DNA from: a virus
Lineage: Duplodnaviria; Caudoviricetes
Length of the DNA stretch: 56,088 nucleotides
IMG/VR virus record: IMGVR_UViG_3300025387_000004
Span: 1-56,088 of that record
Direction: 5' to 3' (one strand)
Of the stretch, positions 33,590 through 39,676 are shown piece by piece. The notes beneath the pieces are model-generated. The model worked only from the letters and a program-made list of their open reading frames with translations. It was not told where the DNA came from and did no database searches. The position numbers and the translations under genes were made by a program. Each line of letters begins with the position of its first letter. Within the stretch, counting starts at the first letter, position 1.

Positions 33590-35848
33590 TCAAGCTGCTT
33601 CCATCGCTTTAAGGTTCCCTTGCAACCGCCCGTCTTCTGGCGCAAGGGCAATGGCATTTTTAACATGCTTCACAGCTTCTGCATTTAGACCCATGTTAAA
33701 GGCTGCAATACTTGCCAAATCATGCGGAAGCGCCCCCCAGCAAACCGGATCACAAGTGTAAACAGGCTCCCGATATGTAATCGCCAAGGCTCGAAGCGCC
33801 GCCGCATAACAATCTGCCCAGCGTCCCTGCCGATAGAACATGTTCGCCAATTCCACCCAAGGCTCACGGGTTGTCGGAGCTTCTGCACATGCCCGATGGA
33901 AATAACCTTCGGCCTCGACAATTTGCCCTTTCGCTTCATAACATTTTGCCATCACCCGGAAAGCATAGCAGCGTTCATGGTGCCAAACGGAATTCGGAAG
34001 GGCTAAATACCGATTGCACTCGGTAATGCTTTCGTCGTGTCGGCCATGAAAGTGCAGTTCACGGGCATAGTAAAACGCATTTCTTGTGCAATGGGGGTCT
34101 TCCTTAACCGAAAGCGCCAAGAGGTCCAAATACTGCCCGCGAGATTTGTGCGGATCTGCATGATGGGAGACAAGAAGTTTGTCCGTGTGCGCCCAGACCT
34201 CCGGCACTCTCGCATCCGGCATAGGGTATTCATGGCACGGGTGGTGCCAATGGTAGCCATGGCGAGCATGGATCTTTTCATAAAGGAATTGATGCCCTCC
34301 GCCCCAATCATACATATATCGCAAGCGCGTGGTGTTTGGCTCCCAAACTCTCTCAATTTCCTCTCGCCATCCGGGCTCTAAAACCTCATCCAGATCCAGA
34401 CTTACACAAATGTCCACATCCTTCGGAACAAGCGCCAACGCCGCATCTCTTGCATGGTCAAAGCGCCATGGGGTGATACAAATCTCATGCACATCTGCAC
34501 CACAATCCCATGCAGTTTCAACCGTTTCATCTGTGCTTCCGGTATCTGCGATCAGCACTAAATCCGCATCTCGCGCACTTTCGCAGAACCTTTGGACAAA
34601 TTGTTCTTCATTCTTACTAATCGCATACACGCAGATTTTGGGTTTCTTTTTAGGCAGGGGCTCAGCCGGATGTTCCGGCCCAAACCATCTTTCAGCGTAA
34701 TCTGGGCGATTTGCCCTCAACCACCCGACAGCCTCTCCATTTAGTGTGGCGAACTCCTGCCCGACCGTCTGCGAGCCCACATGGTGAATATAGGACTTTG
34801 AAATAAAATGCTTAAAGCCCTTTTTACCCATATCCAGACAAATCACATCATCTGAATACCAATTTAGAGGCGGAAACTGGGCTTCTTGAAAAGCGTCTTT
34901 ATGCAGCCAAGCAAACAACGGAGCCACAATATCTGACTCCCTCGCCTGCAACTCCCAATCCCACTTATTATAATACGGGCTTAAAGTGTTGTGGGCACCA
35001 TTTTGATACCGCACGTTCTGTCTATGCGCTGCGGAGTCCGAATGTGCCGCCACAAATCCAACCTTTCGGCCATGCTCTGTGCGCTGAACTTCCACATCTT
35101 CAAGGAGATTTTTATAAGACCACGGAGTTAAAACAATATCATCATTCGCAACAATCACTTCATCATATTCTTCGAAAACTTTTTGAAGCGCAGCATTATA
35201 GGCTTGCCCGAAAGTCGATTTTTCGCCCTCAAACACAATTAGTTTTGTGTCCGGGACATAGCGATCAACACTTGCTTTCAGCACTGGCACACACTTACCA
35301 TTCACTGTGCAGACCACAATCGGCACAGCCTTTGGCTTGAACCAATACCAAACGTCATTGTTAGTTTGTAGGATCGTCGCACCGACTGACGACGCAAATT
35401 CATTAACCGCTCTATTCACCCCTTCAATCACGTTGTAATCGTGACCAGCAAAAAGGCCCCCATCTTTAATTTTTGGGTAAAAGTTTTGGCAGTCCTTTAG
35501 AACTTGTTCGTAAGTGTGCAGCCCATCGATAAAAATAAAATCACAAGAGGCATCTTCGATTTTGCCCGCAGCTTCATCTGAAAACATTCTGTGATGTGTG
35601 ATTTTCTTTTGAAAATCTGCAGTATTCTGCAGAAATTCCTTATAAGTTCCGCCTTGTGCATTTGAAGTAAGTTCGTGCCCGTTCCAATCCACATAATCTG
35701 GATAAGGATCGATGCCGTGAAGTGTCAGCCCTTCAACATTTTCAAACAAATGTTTTGTGGTATGACCAGCACTTAGCCCAATTTCAATACCCGTAGGCTT
35801 ATTAAATCGTTGCAGTAATTTTGGTAGTCCGGCTCCAGATATAAACAT
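33590..35848 (-). CDS. Multidomain enzyme: SAM-dependent methyltransferase (Methyltransf_24-like) + GT2 + GT2 + TPR
   Basis: IEIG..G, GIDPY, FIFIDGLHTY, GHDY (MTase); AYN...ANDDI, YSDD, HHVGS (GT2); ICVYAISKNEE...DTGSTD...RFD.AR...LDLDE (GT2); C-terminal TPR-like helices. Confidence 0.85.
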   Translation of the reverse strand: MFISGAGLPKLLQRFNKPTGIEIGLSAGHTTKHLFENVEGLTLHGIDPYPDYVDWNGHELTSNAQGGTYKEFLQNTADFQKKITHHRMFSDEAAGKIEDASCDFIFIDGLHTYEQVLKDCQNFYPKIKDGGLFAGHDYNVIEGVNRAVNEFASSVGATILQTNNDVWYWFKPKAVPIVVCTVNGKCVPVLKASVDRYVPDTKLIVFEGEKSTFGQAYNAALQKVFEEYDEVIVANDDIVLTPWSYKNLLEDVEVQRTEHGRKVGFVAAHSDSAAHRQNVRYQNGAHNTLSPYYNKWDWELQARESDIVAPLFAWLHKDAFQEAQFPPLNWYSDDVICLDMGKKGFKHFISKSYIHHVGSQTVGQEFATLNGEAVGWLRANRPDYAERWFGPEHPAEPLPKKKPKICVYAISKNEEQFVQRFCESARDADLVLIADTGSTDETVETAWDCGADVHEICITPWRFDHARDAALALVPKDVDICVSLDLDEVLEPGWREEIERVWEPNTTRLRYMYDWGGGHQFLYEKIHARHGYHWHHPCHEYPMPDARVPEVWAHTDKLLVSHHADPHKSRGQYLDLLALSVKEDPHCTRNAFYYARELHFHGRHDESITECNRYLALPNSVWHHERCYAFRVMAKCYEAKGQIVEAEGYFHRACAEAPTTREPWVELANMFYRQGRWADCYAAALRALAITYREPVYTCDPVCWGALPHDLASIAAFNMGLNAEAVKHVKNAIALAPEDGRLQGNLKAMEAA

Positions 35849-35904
35849 ATGAGTTCCCTCTCCTCATATTAAATTTTCAATTCACCTCAAGTTATGCTTT
35901 CTAT

Positions 35905-36252
35905 TCAATCAACTGGCGTTGCTACAGTGTTCCAAGGAATAGGCATACGCAGCACAGGCGGGTTAATTTGGTCTGCAATTTGTTTATCGAGAGCAGTGTT
36001 CAGCTCACTTACTTTCTCTGCACCCATAGCAGCCTCTAGCCAACCTTCAACTTCAGCTTGCGTTAGTTGAGCGTATGGCGTGAATGGTTCAGCTGGATTA
36101 AACTCGATAGTTTGTGAGCCGTAGACATCAGCGTTGTGTGTGCCGTCAGTTGCTTGACGACGCCAATGCACAGTGAACACAACATCAGTTTCGTTTTCGT
36201 GTTGTGGGTAACATTCGAGCTGAGAGATTACCCACGAATAGGTGTTAGCCAT
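35905..36252 (-). CDS. Fibre-associated protein (putative chaperone or tip partner)
   Basis: Directly downstream of the fibre gene; DVV..VHW...FTPY..LT...V.GW pattern. Confidence 0.7.
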   Translation of the reverse strand: MANTYSWVISQLECYPQHENETDVVFTVHWRRQATDGTHNADVYGSQTIEFNPAEPFTPYAQLTQAEVEGWLEAAMGAEKVSELNTALDKQIADQINPPVLRMPIPWNTVATPVD

Positions 36253-36261
36253 TGTTGTTTC

Positions 36262-39200: not shown

Positions 39201-39387
39201 CTCCAGTTGGCCCAATACTGCCTGTTGCTCCTGTGGAGCCTGTAGACCCTGTGGGGCCGGTAAGACTCGCGCCTGTCGGACCTGTCGCGCCAGTAGGACC
39301 ACCCGCTGGGCCTGTCGGACCAATCGGCCCTGCCGCAGAAACTTGGTCAAAATTTCCCGTAAACGGATTAAAAACCCAATTCGACAT
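36262..39387 (-). CDS. Collagen-like (G-P-T/G-A-T) virion fibre with interspersed globular domains, one C1q/BclA-CTD-like
   Basis: Four long (TGPTGA)n blocks; YWGSF.DTT.Q...AG.YNIQFS.Q domain; C-terminal LQSDGTNWV domain. Confidence 0.88.
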
Positions 39388-39388
39388 T

Positions 39389-39676
39389 TTAGCTCCGTGT
39401 CACGGAAATCAGATTGTTCGATCCATCATACGCGAGGGTCAAAGTCGCTTGCAGCGTTCCACCCGAACCATTCAAATAATATCTCACAGTTGTAAGATTT
39501 GAGCCAGTATAACTCAAAGACAAGTAATCATATTCAACTGGCGCAAGCGGCGTGAGTGCGACAAGCCCCGGCGCGAACTGCGTAGTGGACGTTGGTGTCG
39601 CTACTGGCCCGACTTGAACAAGCGGCCTCGGCTGACCTTGATAAATCGGGACAAGAGTTGCATTTGGATTAGACAT
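39389..39676 (-). CDS. Hypothetical fibre-module protein
   Basis: [14 protein letters not shown]...[15 protein letters not shown]; abuts the fibre gene. Confidence 0.75.

Follow-up and report, generated by a model that had tools for sequence, protein, structure and literature searches.

The locus studied here raises the question of what a 752-aa phage enzyme built of methyltransferase, glycosyltransferase and TPR modules acts on, and whether its target is the collagen-like fibre encoded beside it. We analyzed the window, a 56-kb stretch of tailed phage DNA (Caudoviricetes) corresponding to positions 1–56,088 of the record IMGVR_UViG_3300025387_000004, together with viral and bacterial relatives of the locus. 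Our results suggest that the fibre is probably glycosylated by the phage's own enzyme.

Genomic context of the fibre and enzyme genes

The ORFs that a first-pass annotation had described at this locus were found where it had placed them; the four ORFs there are all on the minus strand. With the neighbouring tailspike gene, the features are as follows:

31638–33533, minus strand: 631-aa tailspike with a pectate-lyase fold, directly downstream of the enzyme gene (PF12708, E 7.5e-20; tail and tailspike PHROGs)
33590–35848, minus strand: 752-aa enzyme (ORF call)
35905–36252, minus strand: 115-aa DUF7936 protein, between fibre and enzyme (PF25590, E 3.3e-29)
36262–39387, minus strand: 1041-aa collagen-like fibre, the proposed acceptor protein (PF01391; PHROG tail-fibre matches)
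39389–39676, minus strand: 95-aa ORF, one base away from the fibre gene on its upstream side (phrog_26903, E 1.4e-12)

As the tailspike gene adjoins the enzyme gene, the enzyme lies inside the virion host-recognition module. The phage had been taken for a podovirus, and we did find a P22-like virion module. It comprises a portal, a terminase, a major head protein, a head-closure protein and ejection proteins, with matches to phrog_156 (portal), phrog_283 (head), phrog_578 (Hc3) and phrog_598 (ejection protein). The window ORFs scanned included neither a sheath gene nor a tape-measure gene. Similarly, the remark that sugar-synthesis genes are missing agreed with a Pfam scan of the 56 window ORFs, in which no nucleotide-sugar synthesis domain appeared.

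A threonine-rich collagen-like fibre

The fibre matched the Pfam Collagen family PF01391 in four stretches (E 2.5e-25, 88.4 bits against a cut-off of 27.2) and 25 PHROG families, 13 of which are labelled tail, tail fibre or minor tail. Counting G-X-Y in runs of at least three, we found 130 triplets, with Thr at Y in 95 of them and Pro or Ala at X in 55 and 48, respectively, as expected from the earlier description of a Thr-rich G-P-T/G-A-T fibre. The collagenous regions (aa 20–111, 166–251, 329–484 and 660–786) are mostly GPT/GAT and are separated by globular domains, one of which was modelled with high confidence (pLDDT 93):

37405–37896, minus strand: internal TNF/C1q-type jelly-roll of the fibre, aa ~498–661 (AlphaFold model and Foldseek)

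The first-pass annotation had called this domain C1q/BclA-like. The fold was indeed of the TNF/C1q type, but by sequence the match to BclA (E 1.5e-12) arises from the GPT repeats only, and two globular pieces of the fibre searched alone by sequence gave nothing significant. The top Foldseek matches of the jelly-roll were BxpB (8d02, TM 0.68/0.75), ExsFA, 4-1BBL, the F-BclA CTD and the BclA CTD (1wck, TM 0.49/0.57).

The phage fibre shares GPT collagen repeats and a TNF/C1q-type jelly-roll with the Bacillus proteins BclA, BxpB and ExsFA, and the collagen region of BclA reportedly bears O-linked oligosaccharides. Unlike the Bacillus exosporium proteins, in which this domain is C-terminal, the fibre contains four collagen regions and other globular domains, and its jelly-roll is internal and closer to BxpB/ExsFA than to BclA; the fibre is probably not a BclA orthologue.

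Domain organization of the enzyme

Pfam and a structure model of the 752-aa protein (pLDDT 89.2) recovered the four modules anticipated for the enzyme, and no membrane-spanning segment was found in the model:

35327–35848, minus strand: module 1, aa 1–174, class I SAM-dependent O-methyltransferase, COMT/MycF/MeT1-like (PF13578)
34649–35326, minus strand: module 2, aa 175–400, GT-A-fold glycosyltransferase-like, proposed glycan extender (structure model)
34154–34642, minus strand: module 3, aa 403–565, GT2 catalytic domain (PF00535)
33593–34153, minus strand: module 4, aa 566–752, TPR-type helical repeats, proposed acceptor-protein binder (TPR_14, TPR_2)

Module 1 matched Methyltransf_24 (PF13578) on aa 21–138 (E 3.9e-17, 63.5 bits against a cut-off of 26.3) and was superposed on O-methyltransferases with Z of 17–18 (rmsd ~2.1–2.9, ~155–170 residues aligned), including the sugar O-methyltransferases MycF (4xvz) and MeT1 (6g80). 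No DNA methyltransferase was among the structural matches listed, where the only nucleic-acid enzymes were the tRNA methyltransferases TrmR (5zw3/5zw4) and the m1A58 methyltransferase (3mb5/3lhd). These matches bear on the idea that the enzyme glycosylates and methylates the phage DNA to protect it against restriction, which would be in line with a match of aa 18–156 to phrog_2675, labelled "DNA methyltransferase", and with DNA glycosylation as a classic role of phage glycosyltransferases in the literature cited on them. We consider this highly improbable, since the methyltransferase fold resembles small-molecule and sugar O-methyltransferases (COMT, MycF, MeT1), homologues in bacterial chromosomes adjoin collagen genes (see below), and the gene is located in the late structural module, away from the replication genes, where two further ORFs were noted:

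5759–7192: ParB-DNA methylase, separate from the enzyme, in the replication regions
53662–54390: weak glycosyltransferase-like ORF, in the replication regions

Module 2 (aa 175–400) matched no glycosyltransferase Pfam family, even at E ≤ 10. Its model, however, aligned with 2qgi, a UDP complex, over 190 residues (Z 16.5, rmsd 2.9, model range 174–396) and carries an acidic N-D-D motif at aa 235–237, following the strand at 230–234 (DxD-like, after the fourth strand). The double-GT-A enzymes K4CP and heparosan synthase 2 (HS2) were among the Foldseek matches of the enzyme.

The GT2–TPR core and its relatives

Module 3 matched Glycos_transf_2 (PF00535) on aa 410–502 (E 1.5e-6, 28.7 bits against a cut-off of 23.3), and the Pfam TPR families TPR_14 and TPR_2 covered aa 629–691 of the helical repeats, which span aa 571–751 in the model. 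The DTGSTD motif (aa 435–440) and the D-L-D-E motif (aa 485–488; D485/D487/E488) showed no variation in two alignments, one of 19 and one of 50 homologues. The N-terminal modules varied among homologues (none, Methyltransf_11/25, PF04488, GT-A, or MT24 with GT-A), whereas GT2–TPR was constant, and these C-terminal 350 aa (403–752) are the conserved core of the protein. A constant core with variable N-termini is the look that would be expected if glycans were variably elaborated on a common initiating step.

GT2–TPR enzymes had been described beforehand as protein glycosyltransferases, and the nearest solved relatives of the core, SunS, ThuS and GmaR, together with the architecture of the published SgtA, speak for that description. 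The best structural matches were SunS/ThuS (7msn, 7msp, 7msk), peptide-modifying GT2 enzymes that aligned over 280–310 residues (Z 22.4/21.5/20.9, with 22.4 for SunS; Foldseek E 5.5e-15), across both the GT2 domain and the helical repeats and reaching residues 670–752. In a PDB profile search, the core matched GmaR (3.4e-6), ThuS (1.9e-5) and SunS (1.4e-3), along with consensus TPR and the OGT TPR. SunS and ThuS are S/O-glycosyltransferases whose substrate is a small bacteriocin precursor (glycocin) and not a collagen repeat; membership of the SunS family itself (TIGR04195) was rejected, with 17.1 bits against a cut-off of 350, although the fold is shared. Listeria GmaR (22ao, 7x9r), a flagellin O-GlcNAc transferase, also combines GT2 with a TPR-like region and was both the best non-TPR sequence match in the PDB and a Foldseek match, but the resemblance is remote; GmaR also acts as an anti-repressor and has no collagen link. 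According to its published account, SgtA of C. difficile is a 358-aa protein with GT-A (1–260) and TPR (262–358) domains, encoded next to bclA3, which with UDP-GlcNAc and Mn2+ adds beta-O-GlcNAc to Thr of BclA3 GPT-repeat peptides (PMC7157674).

The helical repeats might instead belong to a protein that mainly helps the fibre to fold or assemble, as a TPR chaperone would, its transferase domains being vestigial or serving some other small-molecule substrate. Chaperone adaptors frequently contain TPR domains, aa 625–752 were matched with Z of ~17 by many chains of TPR proteins related to chaperones, and close coupling to the fibre gene would suit an assembly factor too. This is nonetheless very unlikely, given that the nucleotide-binding and DxD-type motifs are invariant in both homologue sets, that the SAM-methyltransferase fold is intact with a Pfam score far over its cut-off, and that SgtA, of the same architecture, is catalytically active in its published description (PMC7157674).

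Linkage to collagen genes in viruses

Homologues unlinked to collagen genes had been named in advance as evidence against a fibre-directed enzyme; we found the opposite in viral, actinophage and Clostridia/Bacilli loci. The GT2–TPR module is encoded by at least 574 IMG/VR contigs. Among the best 80 of these loci, 48 contained a collagen ORF, as did all 23 with at least 8 kb upstream (22 of 23 under a stricter ORF-boundary rule), counts that overstate the number of independent events because the viral loci are mosaic relatives. The nearest collagen ORF was on the same strand in 47 of the 48 loci and no more than 150 bp away in 18, and a domain homologous to the fibre jelly-roll was present in 17 of the 80, recurring in collagen ORFs that adjoin GT2–TPR genes. 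The neighbourhoods were diverse: the terminase of the window is common to only three of the 80 loci, and clustering of the 47 viral loci of at least 12 kb by neighbourhood gave 5 to 12 groups. In the Actinomycetia phage DSL-LC01 (129 kb, GenBank), two collagen genes are located upstream of the gene for a glycosyltransferase with 45% identity.

In the reverse test, 80 GPT-collagen loci were chosen by collagen similarity alone. The GT2–TPR module was found in 22 of them, downstream of the collagen in 21, and was lacking in 58; of the 27 loci that reach 15 kb or more, 17 were without it. It is not universal for GPT collagens. The Thr content at Y was similar in collagens with and without the module.

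Close relatives of the phage were informative as well. Of 16 terminase-matched relatives with at least 8 kb upstream, four had both genes, 12 had neither and none had one alone, a coupled gain and loss that could partly reflect cassette exchange; among 73 GT-negative terminase-matched loci, none had a collagen ORF. Two loci whose terminases are 95% (L087) and 77% (L104) identical to that of the window kept the flanking genes, with a non-collagen fibre and no glycosyltransferase. L087 retained a tailspike-like N-terminus, with both the collagen shaft and the glycosyltransferase gone.

Alternatively, the target could be a glycan of the host envelope, be it LPS O-chain, capsule or wall polysaccharide, that the enzyme alters during infection, for instance to block superinfection. 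This is the usual reading of tail-fibre-region glycosyltransferases of aquatic phages, for which annotation as LPS- or DNA-modifying enzymes is routine (PMC10202952, PMC7029224; GenBank); passages of the pelagimyophage (PMC7029224) and Nanopelagicales phage (PMC10202952) papers favour host-surface or DNA targets. The PHROG label on aa 403–750 ("beta-1,4-glycosyltransferase; moron/auxiliary"), GenBank annotations as "LOS beta-1,4 glucosyltransferase" and the resemblance of the GT-A domains to the polysaccharide enzymes WrtF, K4CP and HS2 would agree with such a role. The enzyme, however, has a TPR domain and, in its model, no transmembrane anchor, its best structural relatives are peptide glycosyltransferases, its gene belongs to a co-oriented virion module with short gaps to the neighbours, and it tracks the collagen shaft and not the host lineage, all of which make a host-glycan target quite unlikely.

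Collagen-linked homologues in bacteria

We then considered 79 bacterial loci with homologues 38–66% identical to the phage module, mostly from Clostridia and Bacilli at 40–45%, such as L295 (45% identity, E 1e-110). A collagen-like ORF was present in 48 of the 79, mostly co-oriented and directly upstream. A distant subfamily of ~360-aa GT-A/TPR proteins matched the module profile end to end (HMM 3–348, E 1e-28 to 1e-37); the phage module is ~24% identical to this SgtA-sized subfamily, one pairwise comparison giving 24% over 358 aa (E 2e-17). Among 18 loci of this subfamily, picked in genomes from the order of a Clostridia MAG, 14 had a collagen ORF adjoining the gene and four had none within 10 kb. 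One group of related Clostridia loci (Lacrimispora, Hungatella and others) carry a tandem glycosyltransferase pair and had no collagen ORF within 10 kb.

These bacterial loci also help to judge whether the enzyme might glycosylate one or several other virion proteins, such as the tailspike, the capsid or a portal-proximal protein, with the fibre as a mere cassette neighbour. The enzyme gene lies between the fibre and tailspike genes, and in a jumbo-phage clade (PaBG and Erwinia Y3; enzyme 26–31% identical) the distant homologue has head and tail genes around it and no collagen ORF within 9–10 kb. Moreover, mycobacteriophages are described as glycosylating their own virion proteins with phage-encoded glycosyltransferases (Freeman et al. 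2023, cited in PMC12619734), there at the C-termini of capsid and tail-tube subunits and not on collagen repeats (PMC12619734). On the other side, the linkage is specific to collagen ORFs across differing neighbourhoods and extends to bacterial chromosomes that share no phage structural genes, L087 lacks the collagen shaft and the glycosyltransferase yet retains its tailspike-like N-terminus, and the published SgtA acceptor is a GPT repeat (PMC7157674). Another virion target is thus unlikely, though not negligibly so.

Proposed function of the enzyme–fibre pair

Taken together, the structural kin, the SgtA parallel, the collagen linkage and the joint presence or absence of the two genes make O-glycosylation of fibre threonines by the adjoining enzyme the best reading of this comparative evidence, and one that we hold to be fairly probable. 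The last 350 aa (GT2 and TPR) would act as an SgtA-type protein O-glycosyltransferase, the TPR part gripping the fibre chain in the cytoplasm of the infected cell while the GT2 part would transfer the sugar of a host nucleotide sugar to the hydroxyl of Thr (possibly Ser) at Y of the G-X-T repeats. If SgtA is a guide, the sugar would come from a UDP-HexNAc. Module 2, the GT-A domain that precedes the core, might next add a further sugar, of which the N-terminal metal-dependent O-methyltransferase might then methylate a hydroxyl. The outcome would be a virion fibre with a collagen shaft bearing short methylated O-glycans, which may stabilise the helix or shield the virion.

Like SgtA, the phage module has a GT-A domain with a C-terminal TPR in ~350 aa and is encoded beside a GPT-repeat collagen gene (PMC7157674); unlike SgtA, it forms the C-terminal end of a 752-aa polypeptide in which an O-methyltransferase and a second GT-A domain precede it, and its proposed acceptor is a virion fibre rather than a spore-surface protein. 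The proposed kinship with SgtA draws on the size, architecture and gene order published for it, together with the ~360-aa homologues. The fusion itself has a viral parallel in PBCV-1 A064R, described as one polypeptide with two glycosyltransferases and a SAM methyltransferase that builds and O-methylates the end of the capsid glycan (PMC9614988). By domain description, both are viral fusions of two glycosyltransferases and a methyltransferase, and A064R is said there to use host-derived nucleotide sugars (PMC9614988). A064R differs in its reversed order (GT-GT-MT), the lack of TPR, the extension of an N-linked capsid glycan and a eukaryotic host.

Phage virion glycosylation has, to our knowledge, been documented in very few systems. 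We see an even balance for and against a broader proposal, that hundreds of mostly aquatic phages with several backbones O-glycosylate the threonines of their collagen fibres, an undescribed and widespread virion modification in which exchange of the N-terminal modules (GT-A, PF04488, several methyltransferases) would vary the glycan and whose enzyme–substrate pair would be common to spore-forming Firmicutes. Glycosylated Thr might then take the part of hydroxyproline in stabilising the triple helix of prokaryotic and viral collagens, or form a variable coat for adsorption or for evading recognition. If so, a large class of phage glycosyltransferases, represented by the contigs with the core module counted above, would target the phage's own collagen-like fibre, with a bearing on how bacterial-type collagens fold without hydroxyproline and on the variation of phage fibre surface chemistry; this would also point to an evolutionary connection of phage fibres with spore-surface glycoproteins. 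As a single compact polypeptide, the enzyme could be put to use in glycosylating recombinant collagen-like proteins.

Small genes flanking the fibre gene

The DUF7936 protein was present in six of the 80 best viral glycosyltransferase loci, and its gene is kept in L087, where collagen fibre and glycosyltransferase are both missing; it is not tied to the collagen/glycosyltransferase pair. The 95-aa ORF on the other side of the fibre gene has homologues in loci L035, L040 and L104.

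Window layout and the collagen-like fibre

The window represents a complete virus record (56,088 bp) carrying direct terminal repeats; replication genes occupy the plus strand at both ends. PHROG and Pfam scans assigned minus-strand genes to a P22-like virion module, which includes a scaffold, a head-closure protein, an ejection protein and a tail-collar fibre, and detected neither a sheath nor a tape-measure protein in the window. The features named below are:

21509-22723, minus strand, major head protein (PHROG/Pfam)
26137-28368, minus strand, portal (PHROG/Pfam)
28372-29736, minus strand, terminase (PHROG/Pfam)
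33590-35848, minus strand, 752-aa enzyme
35905-36252, minus strand, 115-aa DUF7936 protein
36262-39387, minus strand, 1041-aa collagen-like fibre

A run of genes upstream of the terminase, in the same orientation, comprises, in order, a 95-aa ORF, the fibre, the DUF7936 protein, the enzyme, a pectate-lyase-fold tailspike and an M15 endolysin, with gaps of 1, 9, 56 and 56 bases from the 95-aa ORF through to the tailspike. Consensus scans of 29500-41500 for promoters and terminators gave no excess over shuffled sequence (17 vs 15.7 ± 4.1 and 13 vs 11.7 ± 3.1, respectively) and are therefore uninformative on transcription units. A megablast search of GenBank phages with positions 20000-44000 returned no match. 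The DUF7936 gene also lies 3′ of the fibre gene in loci L010, L046 and L086, and it persists in L087, a relative lacking both the collagen fibre and the enzyme; it therefore belongs to the tail/fibre module and not to the glycosylation pair.

The first-pass annotation had described a collagen-like fibre beside a four-module enzyme, and both were confirmed. Searches with the fibre returned Pfam Collagen (E 2.5e-25) and 13 PHROG families whose labels read tail, tail fibre or minor tail. It contains 130 G-X-Y triplets in runs of at least three, distributed over four interrupted collagenous regions, with Thr at Y in 95 and Pro or Ala at X in 55 and 48, respectively. The internal globular domain (aa ~498-661), modelled with 23 homologues from related loci (pLDDT 93), adopts a TNF/C1q-type jelly roll that is structurally closest to BxpB and ExsFA of the Bacillus exosporium (TM up to 0.68/0.75); 4-1BBL, the C-terminal domains of F-BclA and BclA (0.49/0.57 for BclA) and cyanophage fibre domains follow. 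The proposed C1q/BclA-like domain thus holds at the level of the fold but not of the sequence: the BclA match stems from the repeats, so sequence-based homology to the BclA C-terminal domain was rejected, and globular pieces of the fibre searched in isolation gave only matches to unrelated chains (E 0.59 and 0.69).

A conserved GT2-TPR core with variable N-terminal additions

Pfam recognized three of the four modules claimed for the enzyme:

aa 21-138, Methyltransf_24
aa 410-502, Glycos_transf_2
aa 629-691, TPR

Searched alone against Pfam, the middle module gave only one spurious 13-bit match, and it was recognized by its GT-A fold (aa 174-396; 2qgi, Z 16.5) in a model built from 50 homologues (pLDDT 89.2). 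In the same model, aa 1-174 resemble O-methyltransferases of the COMT/MycF/MeT1 type (Z 17-18), and the glycocin glycosyltransferases SunS and ThuS align to aa ~387-752, covering both the GT2 domain and the helical repeats (Z 20.9-22.4). The top Foldseek hits were SunS and ThuS (E 5.5e-15), with tandem GT-A enzymes behind them. Membership of the SunS family was rejected (17 bits against a cut-off of 350), and NCBIfam returned only sub-threshold matches, with no family for the enzyme, the DUF7936 protein or two Clostridia homologues.

Among homologues in a large protein collection, the C-terminal GT2-TPR unit (aa 403-752, hereafter the core) is constant and the N-terminal additions vary. The full four-module form occurs in eight homologous proteins (68-94% identity), many homologues of 577-600 aa lack the methyltransferase, others of ~525 aa carry Methyltransf_11/25 in its place, and others of ~730-790 aa carry PF04488. 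Stand-alone enzymes (<430 aa) account for 53 of the 74 complete GT ORFs in the viral loci, and just three ORFs are 670 aa or longer. The motifs DTGSTD and D-x-D-E are invariant among core homologues; in profile searches of PDB sequences, the catalytic part matched GmaR (3.4e-6), ThuS (1.9e-5) and SunS (1.4e-3), and the rest of the core matched OGT-type TPRs.

Linkage to collagen genes in viruses

A co-occurrence check of GT2-TPR and GPT-collagen genes, suggested in the first-pass annotation, found them linked in phages and in bacteria. The core is encoded in at least 574 IMG/VR stretches; among the best 80 of these (60-71% identity), 48 contain a collagen-like ORF, including every one of the 23 that extend 8 kb or more upstream (22 of 23 under a stricter ORF-boundary rule), and those without one are mostly short contigs. 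In 47 of the 48 loci the closest collagen ORF shares the enzyme's strand, and the distance to it is at most 150 bp in 18 loci and at most 3 kb in 38. In the reverse direction, 80 loci were picked solely by similarity to a collagenous stretch of the fibre: 22 encode the core (20 strong and two weak matches), downstream of the collagen in 21, and the proportion is 10 of 27 for loci of at least 15 kb. GPT collagens thus often, but not always, come with the core. Thr richness was rejected as a marker of GT-linked collagens, as by inspection Thr occupies ~0.4-0.9 of Y positions with and without the GT. Very long GPT-collagen ORFs lacking a GT2-TPR module were also seen on very large viral contigs and giant-virus MAG contigs (L167, L175, L211, L217, L230 and L243); one such ORF, in L217, is 5124 aa long; 2619 of its residues fall in G-X-Y runs, and Thr fills 92% of its Y positions.

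Control loci found by their terminase (n = 80) included seven with the core and four with a collagen ORF; all four also have the core, and none of the 73 core-negative loci has a collagen ORF. When at least 8 kb upstream was available (n = 16), four had both, 12 neither and none only one. In two terminase relatives, L087 and L104 (terminase identity 95% and 77%, respectively), the flanking genes are conserved but the fibre is non-collagenous and the enzyme is absent; comparison with the window identifies a natural module swap. Long non-collagenous fibre ORFs replace the collagen shaft at L087 3467-7450 (1328 aa) and L104 1715-6792 (500 and 1206 aa), and the N-terminal segment of the window fibre is retained in the 500-aa ORF of L104.

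The window's terminase is common to only three of the best 80 of at least 574 core loci. Full independence of the viral loci was nevertheless rejected: among 47 core loci of at least 12 kb, single-linkage joining on two or more shared ORFs, GT and collagen genes excluded, gives five clusters, one of which holds 40 loci, and four or more shared ORFs give 12 clusters. The viral core loci are mosaic relatives and not fully independent.

GenBank phages were also compared. The 129-kb Actinomycetia phage DSL-LC01 (L082) encodes a 45%-identical enzyme, upstream of which are two collagen genes together with a hypothetical and a halogenase-like gene. The halogenase-like gene (7430-9001), between the collagen genes and the GT2-TPR gene, is annotated as tryptophan halogenase; ~6 kb away, the opposite strand encodes a UDP-galactopyranose mutase and a further glycosyltransferase. 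These neighbours hint at additional chemistry on the fibre, and PMC2938197, which noted halogenase and dioxygenase neighbourhoods, offers a comparison. On a 5-kb fragment of a faecal phage, a collagen ORF immediately precedes the enzyme gene. No collagen ORF was found within 9-10 kb of the enzyme in a jumbo-phage clade (PaBG, L083, and Erwinia phage Y3, L341; 26-31% identity), where its neighbours are a head-maturation protease and head and sheath genes; this distant enzyme may glycosylate a different virion protein.

Linkage to collagen genes in bacteria

Confirmed bacterial matches to the core numbered 572, of which the best 79 loci were examined. Their enzymes are 38-66% identical, often in tandem pairs, and come mostly from Clostridia and Bacilli at 40-45% (Marasmitruncus, 45%, E 1e-110), the three closest loci being other MAGs (Anaerolineales, Limnocylindrus and Opitutae). 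A collagen ORF is present in 48 of these 79 loci, usually directly upstream; none was found within 10 kb in Lacrimispora, Hungatella and other related loci. Many Clostridia (L247-L295; for example L295 9935-12187 and L276 9974-12188) carry tandem GT2-TPR paralogues beside one to three collagen-like ORFs, some with G-A-T or G-D-T instead of G-P-T triplets.

In 56 of 401 genomes of one order, the core matched at E ≤ 1e-10. Eighteen weaker matches were picked in open frames of 309-393 aa (enzyme ORFs of 356-373 aa); the core profile aligns end to end with all 18, one ~360-aa enzyme being 24% identical over 358 residues (E 2e-17), and a collagen ORF adjoins the enzyme gene in 14. In six, the enzyme gene immediately precedes the collagen gene, as has been published for sgtA-bclA3.

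A predicted fibre glycosylation system

PMC7157674 describes C. difficile SgtA as a 358-aa protein (GT-A 1-260, TPR 262-358) encoded beside bclA3, which places β-O-GlcNAc on Thr, and also Ser, of GPT-repeat peptides with UDP-GlcNAc and Mn2+. Judged against this published description, the phage core is alike in size, architecture and gene context. In contrast to SgtA/BclA3, the presumed acceptor is a phage fibre and the core is fused to putative extension and methylation modules. The comparative evidence, namely the collagen-gene linkage in phages and bacteria and the SgtA-like architecture, supports the fibre glycosylation system proposed at first pass, and O-glycosylation of fibre Thr by the GT2-TPR core is the best-supported reading, which we consider fairly probable.

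The core would start O-glycosylation on Thr of the fibre G-X-T repeats in the cytoplasm, while the TPR part would hold the chain before or during its folding. The glycan might then be elaborated by the GT-A and O-methyltransferase modules, as suggested by the variable N-terminal modules, by the resemblance of the first module to sugar O-methyltransferases, among others, and by a precedent, chlorovirus A064R, a single polypeptide with GT-GT-MT domains that builds and methylates a capsid glycan (PMC9614988). Donor sugars would be supplied by the host; as first noted, sugar-synthesis genes appear absent, Pfam finding no nucleotide-sugar synthesis domain in the 56 window ORFs scanned. Helix stabilisation, shielding and adhesion are ideas for the biological role. 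Glycosylated Thr stabilises the triple helix in an annelid cuticle collagen.

Four other roles were considered. The enzyme could act on another virion protein, as may its jumbo-phage relatives, or it could serve as a chaperone only. It could also modify host envelope glycans or DNA, and two aquatic-phage papers interpret such genes as DNA or host-surface modifiers (PMC10202952, PMC7029224). None of the four accounts for an association with collagen genes that is specific, recurrent and bidirectional and that spans phages and bacteria.

For bacterial collagen-like proteins, the modifications predicted in a comparative study from 2010 were hydroxylation and sulfation and did not include glycosylation (PMC2938197). 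Our literature search, mostly confined to sources other than subscription journals, uncovered no report of phage collagen-like fibres that are glycosylated or of SgtA-like enzymes in phages, and an earlier description is possible. We lean towards viewing the phage system as SgtA/BclA3-type collagen O-glycosylation moved onto a phage fibre, with added extension and methylation modules.

Other observations in the replication region

A 242-aa ORF (53662-54390, plus strand) directly after a UvrD-type helicase has a sub-threshold Glyco_tranf_2_5 match (E 4.3e-5, 23.8 bits vs a cut-off of 27). It may be a second glycosyltransferase, separate from the fibre-linked one and a candidate modifier of DNA or another target. 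The domains of the family A DNA polymerase (7622-12187, plus strand) appear to be split between ORFs, with a UDG-like and 3′-5′ exonuclease ORF at 7622-8680 and a polymerase-domain ORF at 9021-10505, the end of which is overlapped by an HNH/AP2 endonuclease ORF (10400-10984); another HNH ORF lies at 4700-5179.
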